Shown here: positions 6,764 through 31,847 of the stretch, one piece after another | Layout: every line of letters begins with the position of its first letter | How positions within the stretch are numbered: the first letter of the stretch is position 1 | NCBI GenBank assembly: GCA_030679255.1 | Contig: JAUXTO010000022.1 | Coordinates: forward strand, 915-64,914 | DNA from: Candidatus Gottesmanbacteria bacterium | GTDB taxonomy: Bacteria > Patescibacteriota > Microgenomatia > UBA10105 > UBA927 | DNA length: 64,000 nucleotides | Direction of reading: 5' to 3' | Translations under genes and position numbers: made by a program | The notes under the pieces: model-generated | What the model was told of the DNA's origin: nothing | The model's database searches: none | Seen by the model: the letters and a program-made list of their open reading frames with translations, nothing else

Positions 6764-8596
6764 CTACCCTCTCTTCTCCCTCGCCATTTGCTCTTGCTTC
6801 GCTTGATCCTTTTTAACACCCGATTGTACTTTCAAGTAGTCTTCCATAGACGGCGGCCACTGACCGCTCTGCTCATAATAGCTTCGCAGTCCCTGATCCA
6901 TGCCTTCCGTCCACGCTTTATATTCACCTTGCCGACGACCCTTCTCTTCCATGCTATTTCGTAGCCCTTGTTCTTTTTGTATGCGCTCCTCATCTTCACG
7001 CATTTCAGCGATAGTCTGGACTGTCTTCCGGTATTTTTCAGGGACGAGATCCGGATTCTTTGCTGCTACCCGGACCCCTTTGTCGAGCACCTCCCCCACA
7101 GCTTTTGCATGCTCCGCGAGCCTACCTGACCCGATGTAATCTTCCACCTTCGCCGCGGCTACACCAAAAAACTCCGCCACTTTGGCCCCCAACCTCAAGC
7201 TGATATGCGCCGGCCCCACGCCTAATGCAATGCCTACACCCCCAACGCCGGGTACTAATGATTCGGCTACTCCTAAAGTAGGCAAATGCTTATCAATATA
7301 ATCATTAGGAATATTCTTTAAAGGAGTTTTCCAGTGTTTACCCATCTGTAATCTGTAATAAAAGTTTTGCAACCAATTAATATTGCTCTTGCCTATTTTG
7401 CCATCGATGACATTTTCCGTCTGCAAAGGATTTTGCAACCCCTTCCCCATCAAGACCAACCCCAATCCACTCAATGAAAAATCAACAACGGTTGAAGCAA
7501 TACCAAAGAATTTCCCCACCTTTCGCCACGTCTCCCCAGTCTTTTCAAACGCTGCGTACCGCTCTGTCTCTTTGATGTTCGCAAGGATATTTTTATGTGC
7601 GTTCACCCATGACTTCTCCACTCCCCCCGGCCCCACCCGTTCCCACCAGCCCGCCACCATCCGTTTCACCGCCCCCACCGCCGGATGTGTTGCTTCACCC
7701 TCTCCCCTTACAATCGGCTTGAACTCTTCCGGTTTTCCGACGCCTACATACTGGATATCGGTACTTTGCTCTCCCATAAATCCTTCTTTCTTCTTCAGTA
7801 TTATTGTACTGCCTCCCTGGATTGGATGCAGCATCCGTGTGCCGATCCCCGGGACGGTGAAGGTGAGGTCATCAATCAATGGTTCATGGATTCGATCGCT
7901 CGCCGACTGTTTGAGATACGCATCGTAATCCGACGTCGTTTTCATGCTGTAGCCCAGTCCCACCCGCCGCTTTGCTTCTGAGAGGTAACTTGACGCACAC
8001 GCAACGACATCAAACCCTAATTCACCCGCAAGCCGCCCAAGGACATGAAAGTCACCCCTTCCAATCGGTCCGATGTGGATATGCCGGCCCACCCGCAGAA
8101 GTTCACGAAACACTCCCTCCCTCTGTTCGGCCGGTATCTGATATGTGGACCACAGGGCCAAAACATGGTCAAACGATCCGTCGGCAAACGGTATCTTCCG
8201 TCCGTCATACTGCACAAATGTTTTATCCTTGACTCCCAGGAAGCTTTTTTGCAGCGCCCGCACTTTCGTCGTATCCCCACCAAACTTTTCGAGAAGCCGG
8301 CGATAAAGATCCAAACTAAGCGTCGCCCCATACCGCACCACGTCGTTTGCGCTAATGAGCGGTTCCTTGATGATATCCAAATTGACAACCGTCGATGGTA
8401 CACCCCGCTCCCCCAATTGCTGCTCCAAGTGCGTCAGTCCCGGCCCGAAATTGAGGACTGTTTCCCCGCGCAAAAGCTCCGCATCAAAGCCGAGTATGCG
8501 TTCATACGTTTTGAGCCCCCTGCCCGTAATAATCTCTCCCTCAAGGCTCTTCGGTTGTTGTGTTTGTAGTATTTTTGGGGATTCAATGGATTCCAT
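6764..8596 (-). CDS. Large hypothetical protein with a class-I SAM-methyltransferase-like N-terminal domain
   Basis: Motifs VLNFGPG, VVNLD, PFADGSFDHVLA; long C-terminal region of unknown function. Confidence 0.5.
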   Translation of the reverse strand: MESIESPKILQTQQPKSLEGEIITGRGLKTYERILGFDAELLRGETVLNFGPGLTHLEQQLGERGVPSTVVNLDIIKEPLISANDVVRYGATLSLDLYRRLLEKFGGDTTKVRALQKSFLGVKDKTFVQYDGRKIPFADGSFDHVLALWSTYQIPAEQREGVFRELLRVGRHIHIGPIGRGDFHVLGRLAGELGFDVVACASSYLSEAKRRVGLGYSMKTTSDYDAYLKQSASDRIHEPLIDDLTFTVPGIGTRMLHPIQGGSTIILKKKEGFMGEQSTDIQYVGVGKPEEFKPIVRGEGEATHPAVGAVKRMVAGWWERVGPGGVEKSWVNAHKNILANIKETERYAAFEKTGETWRKVGKFFGIASTVVDFSLSGLGLVLMGKGLQNPLQTENVIDGKIGKSNINWLQNFYYRLQMGKHWKTPLKNIPNDYIDKHLPTLGVAESLVPGVGGVGIALGVGPAHISLRLGAKVAEFFGVAAAKVEDYIGSGRLAEHAKAVGEVLDKGVRVAAKNPDLVPEKYRKTVQTIAEMREDEERIQKEQGLRNSMEEKGRRQGEYKAWTEGMDQGLRSYYEQSGQWPPSMEDYLKVQSGVKKDQAKQEQMAREKRG

Positions 8597-8652
8597 TATA
8601 TGTATATGAACCTTCCAGGTTACGTAGGTTTGAACATCCTACTTTTTGCTCA

Positions 8653-8940
8653 TTAATTGGGTATTACGTCATTCAACCCCGTACGTATTTTCGCGGTAGA
8701 AGCGCGGATCCGATCACTATCCGCAGGCGCCGCATCTCGATCAATGCTATCAAGCTCTTCATTAATATTGGATTTAAACGTCCCCGTCGCCGTGTTATAT
8801 TTCGCGTCATACTCGTCAATAATTTCCTCGAGTTTCACCCGGTCCCCACCCGTGATCGCATCAAAACCGGCCAGGATATCTATCTTCTCCTTGTCCGTAA
8901 ACAGCTTCGTCTCCTGTACTTTTTTTTTCAATGGATCCAT
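8653..8940 (-). CDS. Small helical protein, paralog family A
   Basis: 95 aa; pattern LF/LS-D-x-x-KI-x-IL...D...; related to 11626, 13023 and 18423. Confidence 0.6.
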   Translation of the reverse strand: MDPLKKKVQETKLFTDKEKIDILAGFDAITGGDRVKLEEIIDEYDAKYNTATGTFKSNINEELDSIDRDAAPADSDRIRASTAKIRTGLNDVIPN

Positions 8941-8994
8941 ATCGTTGTGTCATTCCGGCGAACGCCGGAATCCATCCTGATTACATAACCTTAC

Positions 8995-9050
8995 TGTAGT
9001 ATTTTTTCTTATTCGCTTATTCACTTATTCCATTATTCTCTTATTTGCTT
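8995..9050. repeat. TTATTCN / ATTATTC repeat array (intergenic)
   Basis: ttattcgcttattcacttattccattattctcttatttgcttattg; also at 26925-27000 and 35870-35960. Confidence 0.8.
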
Positions 9051-9688
9051 ATTGCCGCAGCGGCTTCCTCCCTCTTCGCCGCCAGCCCAAAAAATCCTTC
9101 AAACATATTGCGCAACCCTCCCACGATCGGTGGATTGAGACCCGGAACTTGTCCGAGGAACCAGTCTATTTTTGCCAAAGGTTGCAACTCTGTATCCATC
9201 TTTCTGATAAATTTACTGTATACCCAACCAGATAGCTCTACTCCCGCATAATATCCAGCCGCCGATCCGGCAAGCCCCCCACCAATAAATCCTGTATACA
9301 GACCGGCACCAAAACCTAAAACGGATGCAGGGATAGCTCCTGGCCCAGTCGAAGAAAATCCTGCAAGCCCGGCCAATCCGCCGATTACTCCCCCTGCAAG
9401 TCCCCCACCCACGGCTCCGCCAAGAGCCCCAAGCCCGGCGCCAAATCCCGCGGTTGCCGTACTTAATGATGTGAGCGCAATCCCATATGCGGTTTCTTTA
9501 AGCCCCGCCCGCCGGAGCACATCCGCGTTAAGCGTTTGGAGCTTGAGTCTGGCCTCCCGATCCGCCTCATTGATCCCATCACTCACTTTTTTGAGCTCAG
9601 TATTCCACCGCTCAAAAAACCGCTCAGCGAAGTTCTTCTTCTCCGCCCTCTCAGGTGTCATTACTGGCCTGTCCATCGTTTCTGTCAT
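9041..9688 (-). CDS. Glycine-zipper membrane protein (hypothetical)
   Basis: GGAVGGGLAGGVIGGLAGLAG GxxxG repeats; 215 aa. Confidence 0.55.
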   Translation of the reverse strand: MTETMDRPVMTPERAEKKNFAERFFERWNTELKKVSDGINEADREARLKLQTLNADVLRRAGLKETAYGIALTSLSTATAGFGAGLGALGGAVGGGLAGGVIGGLAGLAGFSSTGPGAIPASVLGFGAGLYTGFIGGGLAGSAAGYYAGVELSGWVYSKFIRKMDTELQPLAKIDWFLGQVPGLNPPIVGGLRNMFEGFFGLAAKREEAAAAISK

Positions 9689-9711: not shown

Positions 9712-9918
9712 TTAAGACGAGATGCCTTTTTTATAATCCTCAAGAATCTGTCGATAACGATAATACTGAGCAATGTTCATAAGCATCCCCACGGGTTTTG
9801 AACGATGGACGACACACACCGGTTCGCCCAGCTCTTCAGCGACTTTTATGACTCCCAAAGGATCTTCCCGCAGGTCAGAAATGGATTTAATGGATTTTGG
9901 ATTAAGCATACATCTCAC
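9712..9918 (-). CDS. Phd/YefM-like antitoxin (orphan)
   Basis: 68 aa; ISDLRE...GEPV...SKPVGMLM pattern. Confidence 0.45.
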   Translation of the reverse strand: MRCMLNPKSIKSISDLREDPLGVIKVAEELGEPVCVVHRSKPVGMLMNIAQYYRYRQILEDYKKGISS

Positions 9919-10150: not shown

Positions 10151-11554
10151 ATGAATAACGAAACAGCAGTTCATAATCTAGAAAGCAAAAAATTTGCCTC
10201 TGTCATCAAATCAATAGGAAATAATAATCTTGTTAATCTCAAGGTAATCGAACAAACCATAAGTGCGGCAAACGCATCACAGCTCCTGATTCTTAAACGG
10301 AAAAATGTTATTACCGATGAGGAGTATAGAGATCTCCGACAAAAACTCAGTGAAAAACAATCTGCAGAAGAAAAGAGCCGTATAGACGCTCTCAATAATA
10401 AAATGCACGGAAGCGATCAACAATCCAACACTCAACCTGAAAAAACAACAGAAAAAAAGATAGAACACGAAATTCAAAACGTTTCTTACACCGAATTAAG
10501 CACGATGCTAGGATCGGGCGTTATTTCTCTAGAACGATACGATGCTGAATTAAAACGTCGCAAAGATGATCCGATGACGCTGTCCATGGCAAACCCTCCT
10601 ACCGGCATTCCCGTCGAACGCCGCAACTACTCACCTACTAAAGCCAAAGATTTTATTACGCAAAATGTTCCACTCAGTCAACAAAAAGGACTCTTAGATG
10701 AATTGCAAAATTTTAAAAAAGAAGGCGAGTACTATAGCGTATCCATCAGAAAAGACAATAGAGGCTATGGCTTAGTACGCTTTGAACTCCCCAACCCCTG
10801 GACTTACGTCAAAAAAAACGCCGAACAATCCGTCACGCAATCGGTTCGTCATGAATTAGGCAAAGGGGGCAACCGTCTCATTAACCCCGACTACGTGCAC
10901 AATGAAATGATCAATCAATATAAACTCGTCCGCGATGCCCTCCCCGCGGGCACGACAACTCACAAACTATTGGAAAAAACCGATAAAATCGTCACAGTCG
11001 CCCTCACCGGCGCGGGACTCACTGTGGAAGCGGTCAATCTCTTGGTCAACGCCGTCCGCGGCGCGCTCCTCGAGTCACCTCAATTAAAATATAAAGTTGC
11101 CGCTCTCATCCCCGACGACCTGGTCCGCCAGGGAGCCACCGTAAATACACGGCTGCTTGGGAATAATTTGCGTACATTTATCCATAAAAAATATAATCTC
11201 CCCGACCGTCCCCGCCACACACCGGTCCTCGTCAACACCCTCGACCAAATCAAGCCAGAGCATTACCGCGCCCAGGATGCCCAAAAGGTCGGCATCACGA
11301 TGCGCGATCTGACCCGCGAGAATGCCATTAAATTTATTCATGAAAATGTTCCGGTAGAAAAGCAGGAAAGCGCCATCGAAACGATTAACCGCCTGCAGGG
11401 AAATCAATTTGGGGTTTCTATCATGGATTCCGGCTGGGTCCGGATCGATGCATCAGCACGTGAACCCAGGACATACGATAATCGCCCACAGTACGATAAT
11501 CGCCAAAAGTGGGTCGGCTCTTTTGATGCCTCAGTGGCCACCAAGATGCCCTAA
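10151..11554 (+). CDS. Hypothetical protein (467 aa)
   Basis: Long ORF with coding-like composition; no recognised motif. Confidence 0.55.
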   Translation: MNNETAVHNLESKKFASVIKSIGNNNLVNLKVIEQTISAANASQLLILKRKNVITDEEYRDLRQKLSEKQSAEEKSRIDALNNKMHGSDQQSNTQPEKTTEKKIEHEIQNVSYTELSTMLGSGVISLERYDAELKRRKDDPMTLSMANPPTGIPVERRNYSPTKAKDFITQNVPLSQQKGLLDELQNFKKEGEYYSVSIRKDNRGYGLVRFELPNPWTYVKKNAEQSVTQSVRHELGKGGNRLINPDYVHNEMINQYKLVRDALPAGTTTHKLLEKTDKIVTVALTGAGLTVEAVNLLVNAVRGALLESPQLKYKVAALIPDDLVRQGATVNTRLLGNNLRTFIHKKYNLPDRPRHTPVLVNTLDQIKPEHYRAQDAQKVGITMRDLTRENAIKFIHENVPVEKQESAIETINRLQGNQFGVSIMDSGWVRIDASAREPRTYDNRPQYDNRQKWVGSFDASVATKMP

Positions 11555-11580
11555 TTATCTTTCTGTTTATTTATTGCGAG

Positions 11581-11627
11581 TATTTGTAGTATTGGTAGTA
11601 TTTGAGATTGGTAGTATTGGTAGTATT
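11581..11627. repeat. TTGGTAGTATT tandem-repeat array (intergenic)
   Basis: tatttgtagtattggtagtatttgagattggtagtattggtagtatt. Other arrays: 6593-6620, 15911-15974, 21561-21583, 21651-21683, 24294-24333, 35564-35626 (inside trxB), 55566-55618, 62596-62650. Confidence 0.85.
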
Positions 11628-11904
11628 AATTTATTATTGTCTTGACCCCCAACCGTATCTTCTCCACCGCCTCCCGGACCGCTGGCGCGTTCCCGTCATC
11701 AGAAAGGATCCCTGCAAGCTCTTTATTCACCGCCGCCTGATACTTGGCCAACAATGCCTGATACTTCTCCTCATGCCGCGTTAAAACCTCGTCAAGCTTG
11801 GCGATCTCCTCCTCACTACACCCATCTACCTCCACCAGCAAATTAATTTTCTGCTGATCACTAAGAAGATGCGAGTGTTGTATTGTTTGTTTTATTGTAT
11901 TCAT
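11626..11904 (-). CDS. Small helical protein, paralog family A
   Basis: 92 aa; LLSDQQKINLLVEVDG...; C-terminal EKIRLGVKTI matches family A (AQIKTGVDAL / AKIRTGLNDV). Confidence 0.6.
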   Translation of the reverse strand: MNTIKQTIQHSHLLSDQQKINLLVEVDGCSEEEIAKLDEVLTRHEEKYQALLAKYQAAVNKELAGILSDDGNAPAVREAVEKIRLGVKTIIN

Positions 11905-12024: not shown

Positions 12025-12996
12025 TCACTCATCTTTCCCCATCTTCTCATACAACTCCAAAAACCTCTCCTGCTTATCTCTCTTGGCAGCTCCCATGGTC
12101 TTCGCCTTTTTCGCCTCCTCCAAGAGCGCATCCACTTTCATGGCTCCCCCGCTTTTGCGTGCACTCCGTATCTCCCCGACCGCCCGTATGTATGCCGACA
12201 CTCCTTCGACCACCTGCGCCGCTCCAAAAAGCGTCACGGGATTAGAAAAGTCTGCGACTTTCCCTGCCGCGAAACCAAATTCTGACAACCTACTCTTCTT
12301 CTGAGTTGTTTCAGAATTATCGGATTGAGCCCCGATCTTTTTCTCTTCAACGCTATTTGCTCTAAACTCCCTTATTACCTTTTCAGATGTATCTTTTGTT
12401 TCATTGACCTCTATTAAATAGGATGCATCTTTTGGCTTATTCAATCCCTTTCTCGCTGCCCAATCAAGTACGTTTACCATGGCCGAAGAAACTAAATATG
12501 AAGAAGGTATTTGCGGTAATCCCTTTCCGATAAATTCATTCCCTTTTTGATACATGACGAATGTTGCGCTATCAGCAATTACTTCCTGCGCGAGGGAACC
12601 ACCAAAGAGCTTCTTTACTTGCGCAATGCTTGCTTCATTTCCGACCGGTATCTTAGACAACACCATGTTGAGCGCCATTCCGAGTGCTGCTTCAGATAGA
12701 TACTCCAGTCCTCCGCCTATGGCGCCCGCGGTCAACGCTTTTCCAACTCTCGTCGACGCTATCTCCCCCAATTCCTTTTTCGCTGCAAGATTCGCTTTGC
12801 TCAAGTCTCCCAAAAATTCCATCGTCGCCCCGACGACACCCGCTACCCGCGCCTCCTCAGGCCTCCTCCTCTCCGAATCCCCAATCTTCACCACATCAAC
12901 TCCCGGGACCGTCTTCATCTCCGGTTTCCCCGCCTCCACCACTGGTAATTGTCCTATAGATTGCTCTCCCATATTTTCAGCCTTGAAGGGTCTCAC
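12025..12996 (-). CDS. Hypothetical protein (323 aa)
   Basis: Long ORF in the island; no known motif. Confidence 0.55.
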   Translation of the reverse strand: MRPFKAENMGEQSIGQLPVVEAGKPEMKTVPGVDVVKIGDSERRRPEEARVAGVVGATMEFLGDLSKANLAAKKELGEIASTRVGKALTAGAIGGGLEYLSEAALGMALNMVLSKIPVGNEASIAQVKKLFGGSLAQEVIADSATFVMYQKGNEFIGKGLPQIPSSYLVSSAMVNVLDWAARKGLNKPKDASYLIEVNETKDTSEKVIREFRANSVEEKKIGAQSDNSETTQKKSRLSEFGFAAGKVADFSNPVTLFGAAQVVEGVSAYIRAVGEIRSARKSGGAMKVDALLEEAKKAKTMGAAKRDKQERFLELYEKMGKDE

Positions 12997-13022: not shown

Positions 13023-13316
13023 TCACACTATCGGCTTGCCTACCCCGACGTAGACCTTATCAAGCTCACTGAGCTTTTCCGTTTTTGATGCTTCAGGCTT
13101 CCAAGTTTTGACCGTCTCCATGATCTCCCCAACATTCCCACGTATGCCCGTTTCATTCTTCAAAATGAAGTCATGTTCTTCTGCCAAAAACCGCCCCAAC
13201 TCCTCCACATCCCCACCACTCATGGCGTTCACGCGATCTAACAAAATAAGCTTATCCTCGTTGGGGAGAATAAAGCTATTGCGGATAAGTTTCACCAATG
13301 CAATTTTTTTGTTCAT
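13023..13316 (-). CDS. Small helical protein, paralog family A
   Basis: 97 aa; ILPNEDKLILLDRVNAMSGGDVEEL; 3-nt gap to the 13319..14269 gene. Confidence 0.6.
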   Translation of the reverse strand: MNKKIALVKLIRNSFILPNEDKLILLDRVNAMSGGDVEELGRFLAEEHDFILKNETGIRGNVGEIMETVKTWKPEASKTEKLSELDKVYVGVGKPIV

Positions 13317-13318: not shown

Positions 13319-14269
13319 TTACCCCGCAACCGGCTGAGCAAACACAGCCGCCGCTTGTGCCACATCTGGCTTTTTCACTTCCTTGATTTTTCCATCAAAC
13401 CGTTTCATCACGACTTTCCCCATATCGAGTACTAAATTACGGGCAGTGATCTGCCATTCATTATAATTGTGAGCAAGTTGCCAAACTGCCGGCACAATGT
13501 TTGCTCCAGGTAACACAAACTCCGCAAATCCAGCAACTAACGCGAGTTTTTGCGGCACATCAGGATACGGATCAATTTTATGCATCAGATGAAGTCCTCC
13601 ACTGATCACCACATCTTTCCCTAATTGTTTTTTCGCTCCGGAGTATGTCCCTTGGGCCTCTTTCATCATATCGTTTATTGCCCGCTCAGTTCGTTTTGCA
13701 TTTGGCCCTGTTACCCCGACCTTCTCTAGACGAGCAACTATTTTTGCTGTGTTGCCAACTTCCTCTATTTCTTTCCGCGCTCCCCACGCTTCTTGTGCTG
13801 AATGAATCGGATCCGCCGCCAAATGAATAGGGTTTCGTGGTATAGCTTTTAACGTCTCCCACAATTTACCCCTCGCCGCAGTTTGAACTACCTTTGCTGC
13901 TGTTTTTTCCGCTGCCGCCGCACCTCTTAACCCCCACGCAGCTTTCTCAGCCGTTAACGCCACCTTTCCTGCTTCTGCAGCTGCTCCGAATTTTACGAGA
14001 GTCCCTGTTGTACCAAGAAGTGGAACCAAAGAAAGTCCGCCCGCAGCTGTTGCTTTTGCGTTTTTCCAGGTAATCTCTCCAAATGTTTTTCCATGTGTTT
14101 TCATCACATTCCACATCTCCTGCACCATCCCCACTTCTCCCGCCGCGTCGGCGGTAGATTGTGCAGGCTCCTTCATATCCAGCTCAATTTGTGTGCGTGC
14201 TTCCGCCACCTCTTGCTTTAGAGTGTCCGCCTCGGCAATTTTCTCCATTTCTGATACCTGCTCTTCCAT
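13319..14269 (-). CDS. Hypothetical protein (316 aa), Ala/Gly-rich
   Basis: Long ORF; weak resemblance to 30317..31180 (GTTGTL segment, C-terminal ...AG). Confidence 0.55.
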   Translation of the reverse strand: MEEQVSEMEKIAEADTLKQEVAEARTQIELDMKEPAQSTADAAGEVGMVQEMWNVMKTHGKTFGEITWKNAKATAAGGLSLVPLLGTTGTLVKFGAAAEAGKVALTAEKAAWGLRGAAAAEKTAAKVVQTAARGKLWETLKAIPRNPIHLAADPIHSAQEAWGARKEIEEVGNTAKIVARLEKVGVTGPNAKRTERAINDMMKEAQGTYSGAKKQLGKDVVISGGLHLMHKIDPYPDVPQKLALVAGFAEFVLPGANIVPAVWQLAHNYNEWQITARNLVLDMGKVVMKRFDGKIKEVKKPDVAQAAAVFAQPVAG

Positions 14270-14291
14270 ATATTCGTTTATTGGTAGTATT

Positions 14292-14360
14292 GTCCCGCTG
14301 CTGACCCCCGATCTTTATCGGATTACAGCAGCGTGGATCCCGCTTCGCGGGAGCAGTATT
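14292..14360. repeat. ~70-nt hairpin-forming repeat element, copy 2
   Basis: GTCCCGCTGCTG...CAGCAGCGTGGATCCCGCTTCGCGGGAGCAGTATT; abuts the stop of 14360..14866. Confidence 0.8.
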
Positions 14361-15810: not shown

Positions 15811-15925
15811 AATGCAGGGGACTATATCACACTATGGGCCATCCTGTCAAACCAAACCCCTCCTACCCTCTCCTACCTTCTCCTAATTCCCCTTATCTTC
15901 TTCTATTGGACTGTTGGTAATATTT

Positions 15926-23944: not shown

Positions 23945-24160
23945 TCACCACCCTCTCACAATCCGATCGACAATTTTTACGACGCGGGTCCCAATCGCCG
24001 TCTCCATTTTCGCATTGAGCTTGGCGAGTCCATGCACCGGTCCCAGCTCGATAACCGCAGCTCCCGCAGCAATGCCTGCCAGTGTCGCATTACCATATTT
24101 TTGCATACCACTTAAGTCCCTCGACCGGAGAAACACGCGTGAGTTCGTTTTTGAGTGCAT
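23945..24160 (-). CDS. Small hypothetical ORF, possibly the remnant of a frameshifted gene (see 24108..24230 in another frame)
   Basis: 71 aa Ala/Gly-rich ORF; the adjacent upstream ORF is in a different frame. Confidence 0.25.
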   Translation of the reverse strand: MHSKTNSRVFLRSRDLSGMQKYGNATLAGIAAGAAVIELGPVHGLAKLNAKMETAIGTRVVKIVDRIVRGW

Positions 24161-24363
24161 TGACCGATATCCCGCGAAGTGTTTGCTCTGAAGCGTCGCT
24201 TCCCTCTCCCATACTCTTACCCTATCACGATTGCAGTCGAGACAGCAACAATCTCTCCCTTCTTTTGTCTATCATCTTTTCATCTTCTTTGCTTATTGGT
24301 AGTATTTGATGATTGGTAGTATTGGTAGTATTAACTCGTGTCTCCTCCTTCTTCCTCATCCCT

Positions 24364-25140
24364 CTACTTTTTCCCATGACCGATGACCCTCTTCAGATAC
24401 GTTTGTACGTAGTCATAAAAATCAGAAAGTTTTGCCCGCTCCTCTATCGGGACAAACGGCCGGAGATCGGCGATAAAGTCTGCCACAGAAAAATCGCGAC
24501 AGCGTGACAGTATCACATCAAAATTCTCTACGTTCATCTGATAATACGCAAGCTTTTTTTGAACCATTACCGCATCCGGACGTACGCCGAGTGTCGACAA
24601 ATACCAGAGGTCATAAAGATCCCTCCCTTTCTTTCTTGTCATGATCGCCCGTATTTTTTCGGCGTAGAGTTCCTCTTTGGACAAATGCCATATAAATCCA
24701 GTGAAAGCGATCGGGAAATCACTGGTAATGACGGACTTTTCCGGCTGGAGTACGTCCTCCCGAAACGAAAAATCAAGATTGATGAACGTCGGCGGATATC
24801 CAGGGAGATCGTTAGTGCTCATCATATACCGCTTTCCAGCAATGGTCTTTCGTTCTTTAAATATCAATCGTTCGTGCTTGGTCAGATACCCAAATGCATC
24901 ATGTATCGTCTTCATAAACTCTTTTTGAGGAAGCATCACCGTGAAATCCAGATCCTCTGAGAATCGCGGTGCGTGATAGATGAGATGGATCGCTGTTCCG
25001 CCCTTAAAATAGATACGGGAACTGGCAAGCTGGCTATAGAGCACACTTAAAAACAGATACTGCAAATACTCCCGTAGCGCCGTCATGTCATTTGTTTTGA
25101 GCGCTTTGGCAAAAGCGCGCACTTGATCCATCGTTATCAT
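24364..25140 (-). CDS. AbiEii-like nucleotidyltransferase toxin (type IV TA)
   Basis: YFKGGTAIHLIYHAPRFSEDLDF; 258 aa. Confidence 0.75.
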   Translation of the reverse strand: MITMDQVRAFAKALKTNDMTALREYLQYLFLSVLYSQLASSRIYFKGGTAIHLIYHAPRFSEDLDFTVMLPQKEFMKTIHDAFGYLTKHERLIFKERKTIAGKRYMMSTNDLPGYPPTFINLDFSFREDVLQPEKSVITSDFPIAFTGFIWHLSKEELYAEKIRAIMTRKKGRDLYDLWYLSTLGVRPDAVMVQKKLAYYQMNVENFDVILSRCRDFSVADFIADLRPFVPIEERAKLSDFYDYVQTYLKRVIGHGKK

Positions 25141-25742
25141 AGCAATACCTCCTTTTGTATTTTATCGAGTATCACCTGCACAGGTGGCGTGTGGGGCATG
25201 CGTTTCATATACGATGCGAGACGGTTTTTGTCTATCCGAGATACCTCATATTCGTCCAGAGGAAACTGCCGTAGTCCACGGGCGGCAAAATATGCTTGAT
25301 CTAGGATGGCCTTTTCAGGATGCGCGATGAGCGCGCCGCGGACTTTTTCATACCCCCAATACAGTGATGGCTGGATATGCCCGTAAGAATAGAGCCTTTC
25401 CTGCACCGTCTTTTGGATGGGCTTGTTGGTCGTGACACTCGTCACTTCGTAGGGAAACTGCGACAATATGCCGTGCATATTCAGCGCGGATTCGCAAGAT
25501 ATATACGATGGACCGTGGAGAACATTCGCGATGAGGAATGCATCCGGCGTGCGGTGGACAAGTACGTATATCCCCCGCTCGAGTTTTACGAGTATTCCCA
25601 TGCGGATCAGTTTACGCAGATACACATACAAGGTATCCGGAAGGCGGGTGACAAACATATCCCGGAGCGTCTTTATCGTAAAGACCGGAAGGTTTGATTC
25701 ATAGAGCAATTTGGTAGCCGAAGTTATATTTAATGTTTCCAT
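25137..25742 (-). CDS. AbiEi-like antitoxin / transcriptional regulator
   Basis: 201 aa; N-terminal wHTH-like region; 4-nt overlap with the downstream AbiEii gene. Confidence 0.65.
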   Translation of the reverse strand: METLNITSATKLLYESNLPVFTIKTLRDMFVTRLPDTLYVYLRKLIRMGILVKLERGIYVLVHRTPDAFLIANVLHGPSYISCESALNMHGILSQFPYEVTSVTTNKPIQKTVQERLYSYGHIQPSLYWGYEKVRGALIAHPEKAILDQAYFAARGLRQFPLDEYEVSRIDKNRLASYMKRMPHTPPVQVILDKIQKEVLL

Positions 25743-25984: not shown

Positions 25985-26533
25985 TTAAATTGTTTTTATA
26001 TCAGGGGTAGAAGATGTACCCACTTTTATATCCAATGGCTTTTGCCACAGTCCAGTAACTCTGTTTCTTATGTTATTAATTTGTTGATCCACTTTTGCTC
26101 GAAAATCATTTACATTTTGCATCGCGGACATAACCTTGACTTTATTATCAATAGATAATTTACCCATGAACGTTTCTCCAACTTTGCCTATTCCCTTTCC
26201 TATATTATCTTTCTGCCAATACACTGCCCCTGCCCCAACTAAAACGGTTCCAGCAATTGCAGATACCACCACTGCATCTCTGACCAAACTCCCTTTTGCA
26301 TCTTCCATTTTGCCCGCCACCAGATCCGGCCGCCGCGCTTCGAGCATCTTCATGGCTTCTACGCGCTTTTCTTCGGGAACTTGTGCAAGGATCGCATCAA
26401 TCTGCTTCTGCGCCATCACTTCGGCGCGGCCCTCTACTGTAAACATCTTGCGCAGTGCACCTTTCACCTTATCCACGACTCCCGCGGGTTTGGGCTGCAT
26501 CTCTGCGATAGTCGGTCCTCCTGCTTCTGCCAT
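25985..26533 (-). CDS. Hypothetical protein with a hydrophobic Gly/Ala-rich helix
   Basis: 182 aa; AVVVSAIAGTVLVGAGAVYW. Confidence 0.5.
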   Translation of the reverse strand: MAEAGGPTIAEMQPKPAGVVDKVKGALRKMFTVEGRAEVMAQKQIDAILAQVPEEKRVEAMKMLEARRPDLVAGKMEDAKGSLVRDAVVVSAIAGTVLVGAGAVYWQKDNIGKGIGKVGETFMGKLSIDNKVKVMSAMQNVNDFRAKVDQQINNIRNRVTGLWQKPLDIKVGTSSTPDIKTI

Positions 26534-26589
26534 AATTTTTTTATTGGATTATTGGATTATTGGATAATTTGAGAATTGGATAATTTATA

Positions 26590-26907
26590 TTATGATGCTG
26601 GATTTGCTACCGGCGGTCTCGGAAACAGAATCGGTCCAAACACCCGGTGGACGCCGGATGAGAGGACTTTCACTGCTTCCAGATATGCCTTCGGGTCATT
26701 TTTATCGCCAAGGTCCTTGAGAAGCTGCCGGGATATATCCATCGGACTCACTTTGTCTTTCTTCGATAGCTGCTTCACCCGTTCAAGATAAAGCTTCATC
26801 GTTTCGTCGCGCTTCACCTGGTCGCGCATCTCCTGGCTCGCTTTCACGAGCGGATCCTCCCCGACTCCCACACTCAACTCTTGTAATGCTGCCGTTGCTT
26901 CCGCCAT
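26590..26907 (-). CDS. Hypothetical small protein (105 aa)
   Basis: ORF only. Confidence 0.45.
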   Translation of the reverse strand: MAEATAALQELSVGVGEDPLVKASQEMRDQVKRDETMKLYLERVKQLSKKDKVSPMDISRQLLKDLGDKNDPKAYLEAVKVLSSGVHRVFGPILFPRPPVANPAS

Positions 26908-26993
26908 ATTTTATCCCTCAACTTTTATTCGCCCATTCTCTTATTCCATTCTTTTATTCCATTATTCTATTATTCGTTTATTCCATTATTCTA

Positions 26994-27308
26994 TTATTTG
27001 ATCCCTTCCCCCGCCAACGCCTTATCCACTTCTTCCAAGACTTTATTCATAAGCCCTTCGATCTCTTTGAGAGCGACCCCGTCTTTGATCGTGTCCTCAA
27101 TGAGCTTGGCGTAGGACTCAACGGTCACCCGGCTCTTGGGGTCTGCCGCGAGGAATTCAAGTTCCTCCTTGGGCATGTATTTGAGGAGCACTGGCCACAC
27201 CGTCGCCTGCAGCCCCTCGCTGATCGTCGCGTAGAGCTCCTCTTTATCTGCATCTTTAAGTGTCGATGCTTCTATCTTCGTCACAATCGCCCGCAATTTA
27301 TCTTCCAT
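26994..27308 (-). CDS. Small helical protein, paralog family B
   Basis: 104 aa; EDKLRAIVTKIE...ISEGLQATVWPVLLKYMP; ~45% identical to 28712..29023. Confidence 0.6.
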   Translation of the reverse strand: MEDKLRAIVTKIEASTLKDADKEELYATISEGLQATVWPVLLKYMPKEELEFLAADPKSRVTVESYAKLIEDTIKDGVALKEIEGLMNKVLEEVDKALAGEGIK

Positions 27309-27399: not shown

Positions 27400-27795
27400 T
27401 TACCTATATGGCACGACGACGCGTAACCCTTCAATGGACATAAAATGCTTTGCGTTATGAGAAACAAGCTCATCATTGCGCTCCATCGCGGTAGCTGCAA
27501 TCAACGCATCAGCAATTCCGATGCCATGTGCATGATGGTACATCTCATGGATGGCTCCTGCCCGTGTGGATATATCTACGTTGAGTTCCGCTATCTCTAC
27601 CTGGAGTTGGCGTAACTGCCGATGAAGAAGCAAGATGTCACGCTTTTGTTTTAACCCGTCGACCAACTCCATTACGCTTACTCTGCTTATCATGAGATCC
27701 TGTGATGGTTGCAGAAAAAAGTGTTGAGCATTGGGTTCACCGCGGAGAAGATCGATAAATACCGTCGTATCCACGATCATGTTCTCGTCCTCCAT
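27400..27795 (-). CDS. vapC: PIN-domain toxin VapC
   Basis: IVDTTVFIDLL ... IADALIAATAMERNDELVSHNAKHF. Confidence 0.8.
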   Translation of the reverse strand: MEDENMIVDTTVFIDLLRGEPNAQHFFLQPSQDLMISRVSVMELVDGLKQKRDILLLHRQLRQLQVEIAELNVDISTRAGAIHEMYHHAHGIGIADALIAATAMERNDELVSHNAKHFMSIEGLRVVVPYR

Positions 27796-28040
27796 GCGCG
27801 CTGTCTCAGAAGCAGGCCCACCTGGGCCGCAGTGCCGGTAAAGTGAGAAAGGAGCGTGCTTGCCGCCGGAAGTATCTTTTTCCGGTGCACTGTTGGAGCC
27901 GTTTTTTCTACAGGAAGCAGACGCGCAACGGGAATATTATTCTTCACCACGAGAAACTCTTCTCCGGCAAAGACGCGGTTGACGAGCTGTGCCCATTCTT
28001 CCCTCGCCCATGAAACGGTTACTTGTTGCATATATCCCAA
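27777..28040 (-). CDS. Phd/YefM-family antitoxin
   Basis: 87 aa; overlaps the vapC start. Confidence 0.7.
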   Translation of the reverse strand: MGYMQQVTVSWAREEWAQLVNRVFAGEEFLVVKNNIPVARLLPVEKTAPTVHRKKILPAASTLLSHFTGTAAQVGLLLRQRAWRTRT

Positions 28041-28103: not shown

Positions 28104-28649
28104 TCAATTGGGGGGTATTTCTGGAGGACTTTCTTTAAAAGGAGGTGGCTCTACATCTTTTTCCGGATGATAAACCGGGGCACTTGAAGGATTAATGATC
28201 TTCTCCCACGTCTGCCGGACGCGATCTCCTAAATCAGTCACCCCTGTCACCACGTAGTTAAACGCACGCGCCCCAGCTGCTATCGCCGCTATTCCAAGTA
28301 CTTTCCCGGATTCCACAATCGCGCTTCCTGCTGCTATCGCCCCCGCCGGATTCATGAGGAACAGTGCTCCACCGTAGAGCGCCGCCGCGCTCAATGCCAC
28401 CTTCACCACCGGATCCGCCCAGCCCGCTATTTTAGCGGCGGTTTCAATCGGGCCTTGAAGTTTTGCAAGTAGTTCTGGCTGCTTACCCCAAAGCCGCTCG
28501 GAGGCTACCGTCAGCGTCTTTTTGTACCGCTCACCGACGGCCGGCGGCATTTGGTTCTCCACCCACTTACCGATCCCCGCCGCAATCCGCTCCCCGCGCG
28601 TCATGGGCTTCACTTCCGATTTAACCAAATCCAAATTATCTTCCGCCAT
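28104..28649 (-). CDS. Hypothetical protein with an Ala/Gly-rich hydrophobic segment
   Basis: 181 aa; ALSAAALYGGALFLMNPAGAIAAGSAIV. Confidence 0.5.
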   Translation of the reverse strand: MAEDNLDLVKSEVKPMTRGERIAAGIGKWVENQMPPAVGERYKKTLTVASERLWGKQPELLAKLQGPIETAAKIAGWADPVVKVALSAAALYGGALFLMNPAGAIAAGSAIVESGKVLGIAAIAAGARAFNYVVTGVTDLGDRVRQTWEKIINPSSAPVYHPEKDVEPPPFKESPPEIPPN

Positions 28650-28711
28650 ATATTTTTTCTCCTTATCGATCGACTTTATAGACTTTATAGACTTTATAGA
28701 CTTTCTGACTT

Positions 28712-29023
28712 CTACACTATCCCTTCTTTCGCGAGCAACCCATTTATCTCCACAATCAACTCATCAATCTTGATGGGCACTTCCCGTCCCACCCGTTCAT
28801 CTTTGATGGCTATGCTCACTAAACCCACCCATCGGTCTACGGTGATCGTTTCAGGATTTTTTGTGAGTTCATCGAGCTCCGCTTGCGGCATGCATTTGAG
28901 GAGGATGGGAAGGACGGTAGCCCGCAGTCCCTCGGAAATAGCGCGGTACACTTTTTCTTTCTCTTCCGGGGAAAAATCCGACTGCTCTACTTTGGTGATA
29001 ATTGCCTTGAGCTTTTCTTCCAT
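28712..29023 (-). CDS. Small helical protein, paralog family B
   Basis: MEEKLKAIITKVE...ISEGLRATVLPILLKCMP; start taken at the internal Met of ORF 28712..29059. Confidence 0.6.
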   Translation of the reverse strand: MEEKLKAIITKVEQSDFSPEEKEKVYRAISEGLRATVLPILLKCMPQAELDELTKNPETITVDRWVGLVSIAIKDERVGREVPIKIDELIVEINGLLAKEGIV

Positions 29024-29113
29024 TATGTCAAATATAGGCGATACGCCAACACATATCAATGCCCAACTTATTTCAACTCTTTCAAAAAAATTGTTTCACC
29101 TACAGAGTTGGGG

Positions 29114-30262
29114 TTATAATATTGTAGCAAGACTCTGTACCGCATAGCCAAACGGGAGTATCTCAATGTTTTTAATATAAAGTCTTTCGCTCCCACCATA
29201 GAGCATATAACCCTTTGCCATGGGGTAATCTTGTAAAAAACTTACCAAACTGCTTATGTCACTGCGCGAGATTGTTTTTTTACTTTTTATTTCAAATGCT
29301 TTCAACCCCCGCTTCCCATAGGCGATAAAATCCACTTCAACGCCTGTCGCCGTCCGATAATAATAGAGTGTATACCCCAAATCCAGGTAATCATTAATTG
29401 CCCGCAAATTTTGAAAAAATACGCTCTCAAGCGCTACCCCGCCCATCACTTCAGGCTGATCCAAAGGCCCCATCGGACGAATTGCTTGATAGACTCCCAC
29501 GTCAAAAAAATAAAATTTATTGTGTTTGACCAATCTCCTTTTTGCCTTTTTAGAAAAAACCGGTAGTCGTACTCCCAGCATCAAATCCTCCAGAGCGCTA
29601 AAATAGTCCTCTACCACTTTTCGCCCCACCGAGGCTTCTCTGCCAACTTCCGTCATATTGACGACCGATCCCTGGGAAAAACTTGCGGTTTCCAAAAACC
29701 GCGCAAACGAACCCACATTTCGACTAATCCCTTCCTGAATAACTTCTTGCTGTAAATACGTTTGAATATAACTTTTCAGGTAATTTTTTTTGTCTTGAGT
29801 AGCAAAGACTGCCGGAAGGCCGCCAAATGCTACATATTCTTTGAGATGGAATTCCTTTCCCAGCTCTGCTGCGGTTAATGGGTGCATGTTGTAGATCAAG
29901 GCTCTCCCTGCAAGCAAATTCACCCCGCCGCGGCGCAGTTTTCTCGCTGACGATCCGGTTAAAATAAATTTATAATGGTTGTTCTCGATAAGCCTGTGGA
30001 CTTCGTCAAGTAATGCAGGAATTTTTTGGATTTCATCGATCACAACCCAGTCCTTGAAATCTTTTGGGATAGCCTCTTCTATCCGCGTTGGATTGGCGAC
30101 AAGATAATCATACGTTTCCGCTTTTAGAAGATCGAAATAGAGCGCGGTGGGATACTGAAACCTCACCCACGTCGTTTTCCCCGTTCCCCGGGATCCAAAC
30201 AAAAAAAAGCTGTTTTGTGTCGGCGGACGTAGCAATCTGGCGTACATAAGTCCATTATACAT
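29114..30262 (-). CDS. AAA+ ATPase (DUF4143-type)
   Basis: Walker A FGSRGTGKTT near the N-terminus; 382 aa. Confidence 0.7.
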   Translation of the reverse strand: MYNGLMYARLLRPPTQNSFFLFGSRGTGKTTWVRFQYPTALYFDLLKAETYDYLVANPTRIEEAIPKDFKDWVVIDEIQKIPALLDEVHRLIENNHYKFILTGSSARKLRRGGVNLLAGRALIYNMHPLTAAELGKEFHLKEYVAFGGLPAVFATQDKKNYLKSYIQTYLQQEVIQEGISRNVGSFARFLETASFSQGSVVNMTEVGREASVGRKVVEDYFSALEDLMLGVRLPVFSKKAKRRLVKHNKFYFFDVGVYQAIRPMGPLDQPEVMGGVALESVFFQNLRAINDYLDLGYTLYYYRTATGVEVDFIAYGKRGLKAFEIKSKKTISRSDISSLVSFLQDYPMAKGYMLYGGSERLYIKNIEILPFGYAVQSLATIL

Positions 30263-30316
30263 TGTAAAACGGACTTGTCAAGAGGAATCGGACCAATCAA
30301 ATCGAAGACAGGATCA

Positions 30317-31180
30317 TCACCCGGCGGGTTTGGCCTCCGGCCCGGCCGGTACGGCACTCGGCCCTCTCACGATATTGTTGACGATATGATCCACAACCCA
30401 CGACCCGACCTTTTCTCCAGCCTTAATATGTAATTTTGCAAGCCGAGTAACAGGACGAAACGCAAACAGCGCCGCTTCACCTCCAGCAAGCCCAGCCATC
30501 TTAACCCCTTCGCCCCAGACATATCCCGTTACTCGTTTATCTACATCCTCATTCACCAATTGCTTGCCATCCCAGGTAAACACATTCGGCGTTACCGTTC
30601 TATCTACTATTAATTCATCTGCCTTTTGCAGCAACTCTTTCCTTGCTTGTTTACTGGCTGCTGCTAAGTTTTTTTTATCTTGTGGCGATCCGCGCCAATA
30701 ATCCTTCCACGCTTGCTTTTTAGTTAATTTAGCAAGAGCTTCTTTCTTTTTAGCATCGATTAGCTCTCGGCCCTCTGGAGAATCAATTTGTCTTAAGTGT
30801 TCTTGATGTAATACCCGTCCCCCCGCCTCTGCATTTGCTTTTACATCAAATGCGTCTAATCTTGCTGATCTTGATTTCCATCTCAAGTACCATGGAAAGG
30901 TTGCTACAAACGCATCGCAAGCAAGGGTGGTCGTACCAGTAAGCTTCCCAAACCCACGGACGAGCGTTTTCATATTTTTATGCTCAAGTAATGCCCGGAG
31001 ATCTTCGTTTTTCACCCGGCTCACGACGTTTTCAAACGACTCCAACTCTTTTGCCCCCATCGTCCCCGGACTAAATTCATCCCACCAGCCCTTGGCCGCC
31101 CTCCCCACACCTTTAAGGACCGCCTTGGGATTAATGTCTTTAAACATTGCTTCTCCGTAATTGATGGTCTGTTCTGACAT
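30317..31180 (-). CDS. Hypothetical protein (287 aa)
   Basis: ORF; C-terminal PAGPEAKPAG. Confidence 0.5.
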   Translation of the reverse strand: MSEQTINYGEAMFKDINPKAVLKGVGRAAKGWWDEFSPGTMGAKELESFENVVSRVKNEDLRALLEHKNMKTLVRGFGKLTGTTTLACDAFVATFPWYLRWKSRSARLDAFDVKANAEAGGRVLHQEHLRQIDSPEGRELIDAKKKEALAKLTKKQAWKDYWRGSPQDKKNLAAASKQARKELLQKADELIVDRTVTPNVFTWDGKQLVNEDVDKRVTGYVWGEGVKMAGLAGGEAALFAFRPVTRLAKLHIKAGEKVGSWVVDHIVNNIVRGPSAVPAGPEAKPAG

Positions 31181-31184
31181 GGGA

Positions 31185-31847
31185 TTATTTAGCTACCGGT
31201 TTTTGCACGTCTTTAGGATGCAATATGTTATACATTGCCTTTTCCGCACGCCTCTGGAGCATGGTGGCCGCCACCTCCGGCGCCGTGACGATGGCTTCGC
31301 CTACTGCCCGCTCTGCTTTTCCTGCAACTTTTAGCCCCTTGCCCACTACTTCTGTCGACTTTTTGCTGGCAATAAGAGCAGCAGCTTCCACAGCGGCTTT
31401 TGTGGTAAGTGCGTGCGTTGTCGCTACAGCAAATCGTTTGGCTATGTCCTTTGGAATCGGAATCACAGGGAGAAAACGACGCACCGGCCACGTTCCTGCA
31501 TTATAGACGAGGTCAAATGCTGCAGAACTCAACCCAATAAATGTTCCTGCCAGTCTCGTCATGACCCGGTCCTTCACCTCCATGAGCTTGGCTCCCCAAC
31601 TGCGGTTTTCCCCACCCCACAGGACATCCGTCACCTTGTCCATTTGCTGCACGTACATCTTTATGATGCCACCACCGTGCCACGGCTCTATACGGCCCTG
31701 AAGTTCTTTGCGTATTTTCCAATACTCGTCATTGAGGCCGCCCTTCTCGTTCTCCGTGGCCTGTTCAATGGCGCCCTTCACGCTCGCCACGACGGGGTTT
31801 TCCGTTCTCATTTCTTGGGGCATGGGCATTTCTCCGGTTTCGCTCAT
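31185..31847 (-). CDS. Hypothetical protein (220 aa)
   Basis: ORF; 4-nt gap to the downstream gene. Confidence 0.5.
   Translation of the reverse strand: MSETGEMPMPQEMRTENPVVASVKGAIEQATENEKGGLNDEYWKIRKELQGRIEPWHGGGIIKMYVQQMDKVTDVLWGGENRSWGAKLMEVKDRVMTRLAGTFIGLSSAAFDLVYNAGTWPVRRFLPVIPIPKDIAKRFAVATTHALTTKAAVEAAALIASKKSTEVVGKGLKVAGKAERAVGEAIVTAPEVAATMLQRRAEKAMYNILHPKDVQKPVAK

Follow-up and report, generated by a model that had tools for sequence, protein, structure and literature searches.

A vertically inherited ABC transporter cluster with paired small helical proteins in Candidatus Gottesmanbacteria, a candidate system for Sec-independent export or membrane insertion

Introduction

Adjacent genes for a helical protein of ~100 amino acids and a larger helical partner, together with a dedicated membrane ATPase, are a feature of the mycobacterial ESX systems with their PE/PPE and EsxAB proteins. 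In type VIIb secretion systems (T7SSb), proteins encoded alongside glycine-zipper membrane toxins stabilise, neutralise and target these toxins, and some of them bind the toxin at its LXG domain (PMC10434224; bioRxiv 10.64898/2026.03.12.711312). Here we describe a locus with a paired layout of small helical proteins and larger neighbours, accompanied by ATP-binding cassette (ABC) proteins, in a 64,000-nucleotide stretch of a Candidatus Gottesmanbacteria genome (contig JAUXTO010000022.1; the whole stretch is called the window below). An initial annotation, made from the sequence alone, had noted at 6764–31847 a 25-kb "island" of lineage-specific genes and had proposed a secretion, surface or toxin-delivery system. 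The putative role of the cluster is most likely Sec-independent export or membrane insertion.

Genomes of the candidate phyla radiation (CPR, or Patescibacteria) are small, so a 14–25-kb block that all sampled Gottesmanbacteria genomes retain at one locus likely belongs to the core biology of these organisms, and yet its non-ABC genes are unannotated. No paper on this cluster turned up in our literature searches.

Results

Conserved locus and gene order

Related loci came from two sources: L001–L003 were obtained by exact-protein look-up, and L004–L011 from a scan of GTDB species genomes with the N-terminal domain of the ABC proteins, which gave eight confirmed loci. The titles of five of these eight read Gottesmanbacteria or Patescibacteria and those of the other three "uncultured Gammaproteobacteria"; we took the latter to be mislabels, as their gene content and order match the other loci. 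The cluster stands at the same chromosomal place in all sampled relatives that have these genes, and the named ones are all Candidatus Gottesmanbacteria. Its core is flanked in the window by glutamate dehydrogenase (GDH; 32629–34023, minus strand; Pfam ELFV_dehydrog, E 2e-68) and by tRNA-Ala (4456–4531, minus strand) with 23S rRNA (1062–4081) next to it. GDH is a conserved upstream boundary: in L006–L010 the first B gene comes immediately after it, and the cluster starts directly after it in six distant genomes, the GDH of the distant relatives being 64–66% identical to that of the window. The downstream end was seen in one distant locus, L008, where the same tRNA/23S arrangement follows the cluster. 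The GC content (0.45–0.51) and GC skew of the region equal those of its flanks, and no integrase or transposase was found there. By composition and position, then, the label "island" does not hold, and the region is better described as a cluster inherited vertically at a constant position than as a horizontally acquired one.

All open reading frames (ORFs) named in the initial annotation are present at the coordinates given there. The genes of the region described below lie on the minus strand; the only plausible plus-strand gene is 10151–11554. A 218-aa low-complexity ORF on the plus strand at 20452–21108, antisense to a HepT gene and to repeat arrays, is almost certainly no gene.

The distant relatives L006–L011 carry a compact cluster of ~14 kb without toxin–antitoxin (TA) or defence genes, which in the window is stretched to 25 kb. 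With A and B for the two small helical families, GlyZip for glycine-zipper proteins and C and f-numbers for other families, the compact order is GDH, B1-f16, B2-f8, B3-f9, (GlyZip-A3), two to three ABC genes, F316-A4, f10-f11 and C-A. The GlyZip-A3 pair occurs in three of these loci; f19 and f25 follow C-A in L008, L010 and L011, with tRNA and 23S rRNA after them in L008. The compact form comprises seven translationally coupled cognate pairs, ordered either B then partner or partner then A, with gaps mostly below 100 nt and frequent 4-nt overlaps within pairs. Partners in this form are leaderless, Gly/Ala-rich and weakly hydrophobic proteins of 165–360 aa. The number of modules varies by clade (two or three B pairs, two or three ABC genes, GlyZip-A3 present or absent). 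A and ABC genes stand together in every one of the ten related loci that was long enough to judge, and B is there wherever the locus reaches that far. The close relatives L002, L004 and L005 have the gene order of the window with different TA insertions.

The recurring order proposed initially, from glycine-zipper protein through small helical protein to large protein, was thus right about the pairing, and its conserved form is partner then A or B then partner, with 4-nt overlaps in relatives. This pairing and the association with ABC genes are kept in every related genome sampled.

Small helical families A and B

Family A has four genes in the window, A1 (8653–8940), A2 (11626–11904), A3 (18423–18716) and A4 (13023–13316), and family B has two, B3 (26994–27308) and a gene at 28712–29059 with a probable ATG start at 29023 that would give about 103 aa. 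These memberships, which the initial annotation had assigned from the sequence alone, are borne out by blastp, profile comparison and clustering. A1, A2 and A3 match one another at blastp E 1e-12 to 1e-16; A4 has a weak pairwise match (E 0.003), but profile and clustering place it in the family, and it has conserved orthologs of its own. Identity between the two B genes is 43% (E 6e-21), and the one at 28712 was aligned with 19 B members. The compact clusters have an additional A-like subfamily, the fifth, in f11 (hhalign probability 89%), and the orthologous subfamilies A1–A4, f11 and B1–B3 are each retained.

A and B are probably cytosolic, all-helical proteins of ~100 aa. The AlphaFold2 (AF2) model of A3, which is 100% identical to a protein of a Gottesmanbacteria metagenome-assembled genome (P0001; NCBI Q8L37_03075), is all-helical with a pLDDT of 95, and no significant structural neighbour of the family A model was found in the PDB. 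Neither family has a Pfam match, A3 and B3 have no significant NCBIfam match, and the A and B profiles hit nothing below E 0.07 among PDB sequences; the remote-homology searches thus linked A and B to no housekeeping family. The label "RNA-binding protein YhbY" that JGI gives to one B homolog (P0139) is without Pfam support, and we rejected it. A and B match each other over 26 N-terminal columns only (hhalign E about 1e-3, probability 15–21%), with the common motif I-x-x-[ST]-x-L-[ST]-x-x-[DE]-K-x-x-[IL]-[LY]; a common ancestry is possible on this similarity.

A word-indexed search with the family A profile returned 83 proteins. An exhaustive HMMER search over 1.84 billion representatives gave 115 matches at E<=1e-3, about 109 of them small A-like proteins. 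Six long proteins among the 115, each matching in 4–17 short stretches, were rejected as spurious; the three inspected (P0212, P0282, P0296) are tandem-repeat proteins that score by summing weak repeats. Family B has 172 homologs, and the B3-type ones listed are 62–96% identical to the window protein. All named database matches to A, B and the ABC N-terminal domain are Gottesmanbacteria or "Patescibacteria group", which agrees with the lineage specificity first noted for these genes.

Partner proteins

Two partners are glycine-zipper proteins, as the initial annotation had recognised: a 215-aa protein at 9041–9688 (17% Gly, hydrophobic region 68–144), cognate partner of A1, and the 257-aa GlyZip257 at 18827–19600 (14% Gly, hydrophobic segment 95–121), partner of A3. 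An hhalign comparison confirms them as paralogs (probability 96.6%, E 7e-10), and long GxxxG-type runs are visible in both. GlyZip257 scores 16.9 and 16.6 bits against the Pfam Gly-zipper models, below their cut-offs of 28.9 and 25, and the 215-aa protein has no Pfam Gly-zipper match. In L007–L009 the GlyZip gene precedes A3 at a spacing of -4 or +1 nt.

The partner of A4 is a 316-aa Ala-rich protein (13319–14269) with orthologs in all loci; the gap to A4 is 2 nt in the window and a 4-nt overlap in L005, L008 and L010. A2 has as its partner a 323-aa protein of family C (12025–12996; probable ATG start 12972, and 315 aa in the L001 gene call), of which the 268-aa protein at 15004–15810 is a paralog (blastp E 0.005, same phmmer cluster). 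The B partners in the window are a 181-aa protein (28104–28649), with a polar N-terminal region and then a Gly/Ala-rich hydrophobic stretch at 78–138, and the 182-aa partner of B3 (25985–26533), with a polar N-terminal region and a hydrophobic segment at 79–108 (hydropathy 2.03). The latter is f9-like (hhalign probability 77% to f9), and f8, f9 and this protein are related.

The 610-aa protein at 6764–8596 is a fusion. Its N-terminal part is weakly class-I methyltransferase-like (Methyltransf_11 E 2e-6, weak but above the cut-off), in line with the first reading of this gene, and its C-terminal module starts at 'MGEQSTDIQYVGVGKP' (residue 277) and resembles the N-terminus of the 323-aa protein; the two parts are separate genes in L002 and fused in L005.

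The partner proteins have no N-terminal signal peptide and contain internal Gly/Ala-rich hydrophobic stretches. None has a Pfam match, and both glycine-zipper proteins and the 323-, 316- and 467-aa proteins have no significant NCBIfam match. On these comparisons, the cluster components apart from the ABC genes are new protein families.

ABC proteins

Two ABCB-like half-transporters are encoded in the window, the 821-aa ABC1 (15926–18391; ABC_tran E 6e-33) and ABC2 (21607–23901; ABC_tran E 1e-29). ABC1 is conserved along its whole length and is 100% identical to P0084, which lies on the same contig as P0001 and is named "ABC transporter ATP-binding protein/permease" by NCBI. ABC1 and ABC2 align from end to end at 34% identity (E 5e-139), each with a C-terminal ABC_tran domain. 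This nucleotide-binding domain (NBD) is closest to ABCB1 in the PDB (the best match of ABC1) and, in NCBIfam, to CydC, CydD, type I secretion (T1SS) LssB and bacteriocin ABC models, at NCBIfam scores far below the cut-offs. Walker A (GxxGxGK[TS]), the signature ([FY]SGGE) and the H-loop ([VI]THD) are present in 21/21 ABC paralogs, and the Walker B pattern (LFLDEPT) with its catalytic Glu was matched in 18/21, both window proteins included.

A degenerate ATP site, which would mark an obligate heterodimer, was looked for in the paralogs and not found; the tandem adjacency of ABC genes in relatives, with 24-nt gaps in L007–L011, is what suggests a heterodimer. A search with the N-terminal domain gave 8 matches and 8 genome loci. 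The proteins carry an N-terminal extension of ~130 aa of an unfamiliar kind, for which hhalign found no relation to any of the small and partner families. Aligned with residues 97–255 of E. coli MsbA, CydC, CydD, MdlA and MdlB, the N-terminal profile matched over 155 columns (hhalign P 0.002, probability 14%), and alignments to NCBIfam exporter models extend into TM5/6 of ABC2. We tentatively read the N-terminal region as a very divergent type IV exporter domain on the basis of these marginal alignments and of an equally marginal, in-register one to TM3–TM4 of ABCB6.

A mosaic ABC gene and contrasts in conservation

We compared ABC2 of the window (21607–23901) with its counterparts in L004 (2000–4363) and L005 (3643–5778); the aligned DNA is mostly 72–89% identical to the window. 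The NBD is 93–95% identical in amino acids between the three species, whereas the N-terminal ~480 aa differ strongly, at 34–39%, no closer than to ancient paralogs (26–42%). Nucleotide similarity starts abruptly at about 22460 in both comparisons. Identities of membrane domain and NBD are ordinary in the other ABC groups, at 81/93, 69/86, 56/73 and 59/78; within the ABC1 group they range over 78–83% and 91–95%. Silent copies of alternative ABC2 membrane domains were sought in the window, and none was found. A metagenome scan for close ABC2 alleles turned up only L014 and L015, which come, like L005, from the Hainich H41 site and have its ABC2-MntA/HepT gene set, the fragment L016, and L017, a tandem pair that is more distant. 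The mosaic may have arisen by recombinational replacement of the membrane domain, or possibly by gene conversion of the NBD followed by differential loss of paralogs. An ABC gene with a constant NBD and a variable membrane domain is unusual and could mark a specificity-determining or exposed part.

The cluster shows similar contrasts elsewhere. Between the window and L005, A proteins are 77–85% identical and ABC1 84%, against 45–67% for the partners and 50% overall for ABC2; within the clade the NBDs are 91–95% identical. The middle part of GlyZip257, very divergent from that of L004, has identities of 8–32%, between better-conserved N- and C-terminal parts, and the gene neighbours the divergent ABC2 membrane domain. 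B3 is the most conserved protein of the cluster, with 99% amino acid identity to L004 at 83% nucleotide identity and 76–78% identity to L006–L011, where GDH has 64–66%. This pattern fits cytosolic constant parts combined with variable parts that may be exposed or bear specificity.

A recurring terminal motif

A short sequence, approximately [QK]-hydrophobic x3-G-x-[GSA]-[KDE], recurs at the N- or C-termini of five unrelated families of the cluster and is kept in their orthologs. It stands at the conserved C-terminus of A4 (KVYVGVGKP), at the N-termini of GlyZip257 (PQFVGQGDA) and f10 (HVYLGEGKA), and at the C-terminus of distant C-family proteins (KVYVGKS). In the 610-aa protein it lies at residue 283, at the junction of the two domains, where L002 has a gene boundary, and a looser form (QVLVGEG, or QVFYA) is found in the tail of every ABC paralog. 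Among background proteins the only recurring match is the Rossmann motif of thioredoxin reductase.

Inserted cassettes and other genes of the region

The TA modules, the AAA+ ATPase and the membrane-anchored nuclease listed in the initial annotation are all present by Pfam. They are absent from the compact form of the cluster in distant relatives, and we therefore regard them, on this gene-content comparison, as lineage-specific insertions and not parts of the system. Several cassettes carry promoter-like TTGACA sites of their own. In this region only the TA and defence cassettes behave like insertions, and their presence can give a conserved operon the look of an "island".

A VapBC-type module (31917–32563) consists of a PIN toxin (31917–32327, E 4e-10) and a MazE/AbrB antitoxin (32324–32563; MazE_antitoxin E 8e-7) and is absent between GDH and B1 in L006–L010. 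A module of PIN and Phd/YefM type (27400–28040) has its toxin at 27400–27795 (PIN E 1e-16) and its antitoxin at 27777–28040 (PhdYeFM E 7e-6), with a promoter-like site at 28069–28042. The AbiEi/AbiEii type IV module (24364–25742; AbiEii E 2e-32, AbiEi_4 weak) has such a site at 25780–25752. The MntA/HepT module (20746–21388) comprises MntA at 21080–21388 (NTP_transf_2, Polbeta) and HepT at 20746–21096 (HepT-like E 7e-24). It is bracketed by the 3' end of ABC2 and an 81-nt duplicate of it at 20662–20742 (minus strand), an 88% identical direct repeat of 21674–21754, which is likely the footprint of the insertion of this cassette.

An ATPase with AAA_14 and DUF4143 domains (29114–30262; Pfam E 6e-21 and 3e-27) matches the PADLOC candidate defence gene PDC-S01 (E 8e-53); it has a perfect 12/12 promoter-like site at 30281–30254, and a 25%-identical copy lies at a different place in L002. 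An orphan antitoxin-type gene resembling Phd/YefM (9712–9918; Pfam E 8e-5, below the cut-off), another of the inserts, is 89% identical in L002 and has an 11/12 promoter-like site at 9961–9933. The SNase-type nuclease (19799–20449; Pfam SNase E 6e-9, 36.8 bits against a cut-off of 21) has an N-terminal hydrophobic anchor at residues 24–49 (Kyte-Doolittle (KD) hydropathy 2.44); it occurs in the window and L002 only (81% identity) and is absent from the clusters of L004–L011.

Several further genes of the region have no Pfam match: a 168-aa hypothetical (14360–14866) with orthologs in L002 and L005; a 105-aa hypothetical (26590–26907) with an ortholog in L004 (79% identity); a 287-aa hypothetical (30317–31180), the C-terminal part of which is related to f16, the B1-partner family of distant genomes (hhalign probability 77%); an Ala/Gly/Lys-rich 220-aa hypothetical (31185–31847) with weak hydrophobic segments only and no signal peptide; and the plus-strand 467-aa hypothetical (10151–11554), with one hydrophobic segment, orthologs only in L001, L002, L003 and L005, and no NCBIfam match either. 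A 71-aa ORF between AbiE and ABC2 (23945–24160) resembles the C-terminus of the 287-aa protein (hhalign probability 84%) and is probably a gene remnant.

Intergenic repeats and the rest of the window

Short intergenic tandem arrays with periods of 8, 9 and 10 nt occur throughout the window and are not confined to the cluster. The 10-nt unit reads TAGGAGnnnn on the coding strand and is Shine-Dalgarno-like (6697–6773, 15856–15885, 18719–18754, 20500–20545, 21512–21537, 45124–45159 and 49237–49276). Arrays of 8 nt lie at 9008–9053, 19785–19832, 20613–20642, 26543–26585, 26948–26998 and 35871–35983. Those of 9 nt have the unit TATTGGTAG (11579–11627, 15930–15974, 24294–24332, 35555–35625, 55563–55617 and 62601–62648) or GACTTTATA (28672–28704, 39070–39088 and 61428–61461). 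The ABC1, ABC2 and SNase genes run into tandem arrays, which gives them unusual C-terminal tails, for instance NTTNKQISNTTNTTK; the NTT sequons of the ABC tails, at first considered as a feature, were rejected, being the translated 9-nt repeat of the TATTGGTAG arrays.

An element resembling repetitive extragenic palindromes, of ~90–100 nt, has copies 89–94% identical at 6608–6696, 14272–14371 and 21600–21697. It contains two small hairpins (CCGATCTTTATCGG and TCCCGCTTCGCGGGA). Each copy sits at the 3' end of a gene, namely those for the 610-aa protein, the 168-aa protein and ABC2, and the last 13 codons of ABC2 fall within it.

Elsewhere in the window, an 882-aa ORF (51024–53672, minus strand) has intein splicing and LAGLIDADG homing-endonuclease domains (Pfam E about 2e-7). 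An ATP-dependent DNA ligase of archaeal/eukaryotic type (55616–57379), two Fic/DOC-domain proteins (41572–42618 and 57797–58981) and a RecF-like SMC_N/AAA_23 ATPase (61492–62565) are also encoded. The 23S rRNA, whose match spans 3020 nt against a 2925-position model, is preceded by tRNA-Ala only, and no 16S rRNA was found within the 64-kb window. A gene resembling thioredoxin reductase stands three genes upstream of the cluster in the window (34078–35866) and in L006–L010. In E. coli (L012, 1475–6051), trxB adjoins cydDC, the NCBIfam models of which rank among the top NBD matches; this parallel is probably a coincidence.

Discussion

The most economical reading of the locus is an ABC-centred secretion or surface system. 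More specifically, we propose an ABC-driven, chaperone- or adaptor-assisted system for the export or membrane insertion of leaderless membrane-active proteins, to which we give a probability of roughly 40%. Each small helical protein would bind its neighbour in the cytosol, keep it soluble or inert and present it to the ABC transporter or transporters; these would export the partner, or insert it into the membrane, without Sec signals, yielding proteins directed to the surface or to a target membrane. The pairs, their coupling, the synteny, the restriction to the lineage, the intact ATPase motifs, the lack of signal peptides and the pattern of conservation are observations; binding, export and any role in cell–cell interaction are what we infer. 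The secretion or surface system first suggested for this region gains from the conserved pairing and ABC association, and the TA, Abi, AAA+ and SNase genes drop out of it; the link to an episymbiotic lifestyle that was suggested with it is speculative. The paired architecture leads to testable hypotheses, namely binding between A or B proteins and their partners and ABC-dependent export.

Several observations weigh against this proposal. We have no direct evidence of export of any cluster protein. No Peptidase_C39 or HlyD match was found among the cluster proteins scanned with Pfam, and no double-glycine leader was seen. The initial annotation had described ABC1 and ABC2 as exporters with a transmembrane domain and an NBD; their paralogy and C-terminal NBD are clear, and the membrane domain is less so. 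The N-terminal 534–587 aa have no Pfam match at E<=10, and hence match neither ABC_membrane nor Peptidase_C39, and this region (480–590 aa) is of weak hydropathy, with one segment per protein at KD >= 1.5. A 21-sequence N-terminal profile aligns in register with TM3–TM4 of ABCB6 at a marginal E of 0.09, and the AF2 model of ABC1, built from an 8-sequence alignment, reached a pLDDT of only 45 and a pTM of 0.31. The terminal motif is loose (its strict form occurs 3 versus 0 times in the window, Fisher p = 0.066), and the tails of ABC1 and ABC2 share a 48-nt DNA element of 92% identity that partly carries the motif, after which they run into intergenic 9-nt repeats. Finally, A and B vary less than their partners, which fits an adaptor or core subunit and would also fit a stable complex.

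That last point leads to a rather unlikely alternative, in which the genes encode a stable membrane machine of several subunits, specific to the lineage. Its permanent membrane subunits would be the Gly/Ala-rich proteins, with A and B as cytoplasmic subunits or assembly factors, and the ABC proteins would pump a small molecule, a peptide or a lipid instead of the proteins encoded next to them. The fixed locus with tight, operon-like packing across the sampled genomes would suit such a machine, as would the very strong purifying selection on B3 and the NBDs, the retention of each of the subfamilies A1–A4, f11 and B1–B3, and the best NBD scores falling on the CydC/CydD small-molecule exporters. 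Such a machine accords poorly with a number of modules that varies by clade (B pairs, ABC genes, GlyZip-A3), with partners that evolve much faster than A and B, and with the wholesale replacement of one ABC membrane domain between species, which would be unusual at fixed stoichiometry. Another reading is an array of toxin/immunity pairs: the glycine-zipper and other partners would be bacteriocin-like pore-formers, A and B would be their cytosolic immunity proteins, and the ABC proteins would serve as dedicated exporter or immunity transporter. The glycine-zipper composition, the translationally coupled order of toxin and then small protein, the divergent GlyZip257 middle beside a divergent ABC2 membrane domain and the bacteriocin exporters among the NCBIfam NBD matches all point that way, and glycine-zipper toxins of type VII secretion systems (T7SS) do have cognate immunity proteins (PMC12744356). 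Yet we think this quite improbable: the sampled genomes have inherited the locus vertically and carry it in orthologous form, without variability from strain to strain, the small protein comes first in B pairs, and the ABC N-terminal regions lack Pfam Peptidase_C39 and no double-glycine leader was seen. Immunity proteins normally co-diversify with their toxins, whereas A and B have changed less than the putative toxins. Classical bacteriocin logic thus fits poorly.

The presence of six TA or defence-type modules within 25 kb, and matches of the ABC NBDs to PADLOC ABC-ATPase models (mad3, mad8, AriA), raise the question of a defence island in which the ABC ATPases and their neighbours form an anti-phage system. 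We give this idea next to no credence. The PADLOC matches cover the generic NBD only; A3, B3, GlyZip257 and the 316-, 610- and 467-aa proteins match no PADLOC defence model; and the compact cluster of L006–L011 does without TA or defence genes, its location and content being conserved, unlike those of defence islands. It is also very improbable that there is no system here, only unrelated lineage-specific genes and ordinary paralog expansions in a conserved neighbourhood. No function is assignable to any core non-ABC gene, as that view would expect, but it leaves unexplained the repeated pair architecture with 4-nt overlaps, the co-occurrence of A and ABC genes in every one of the ten related loci that was long enough to judge, with B wherever the locus extends to it, and a terminal motif common to several families.

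Our proposal of ABC-driven export or insertion can be extended into a more speculative picture, which we consider unlikely as a whole: a CPR-lineage-specific export route with ABCB-like exporters, one of them carrying an exchangeable membrane domain on a constant ATPase, in which helical adaptors A and B would deliver leaderless glycine-zipper or Gly/Ala-rich cargo by way of the Q-hydrophobic-G terminal motif. The cargo would form pores or junctions in the membrane of a partner cell, and the divergent parts of the system would reflect an arms race with host or phage.

Among known systems, the PE/PPE and EsxAB pairs differ from the pairs described here: we detected no similarity in sequence or structure and saw neither a YxxxD/E nor a WxG motif, and the ATPase is of another class. 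In T7SSb, the LXG glycine-zipper toxins TelE and EsxX come with co-encoded and co-expressed partner proteins and with immunity proteins (PMC10434224; bioRxiv 10.64898/2026.03.12.711312; PMC12744356), and the stabilising, neutralising and targeting action of those partner proteins is the closest functional analogy to what we propose for A and B. The cluster differs in having an ABC protein as its motor, in being a conserved chromosomal core instead of a polymorphic toxin locus, and in a family A model without a significant PDB structural neighbour. A and B belong to no Pfam family, hence to neither WXG100 nor LXG, and no ATPase of FtsK/EssC type was found.

The ABCB-type half-transporters offer a further comparison. 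Those of bacteriocin export (peptidase-containing ABC transporters, PCAT), of T1SS (HlyB, LssB, PrtD) and of the heterodimeric CydDC have their NBD after the membrane domain, the same order as with the putative membrane domain of ABC1 and ABC2. We found no Peptidase_C39 as in PCAT (Pfam, E<=10) and, by eye, no leader of LSxxELxxIxGG type in neighbouring proteins; HlyD and OEP, the Pfam families expected beside a T1SS, had no match among the cluster proteins scanned in the window and L008, and no RTX signal was seen. The ABC proteins of the cluster score far below the family cut-offs, their membrane domain is invisible to Pfam, they bear the ~130-aa N-terminal extension, and their candidate cargo consists of proteins of 165–360 aa with hydrophobic hairpins, each with a small helical partner. 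In common with known half-transporters, the window proteins have the Walker A, signature, Walker B and H-loop motifs of an ABC NBD; further points in common are tandem paralogous half-transporter genes, as in cydDC, and leaderless proteins encoded next door. The cluster is best filed, as a candidate, among the ABC-exporter-centred secretion or insertion systems.

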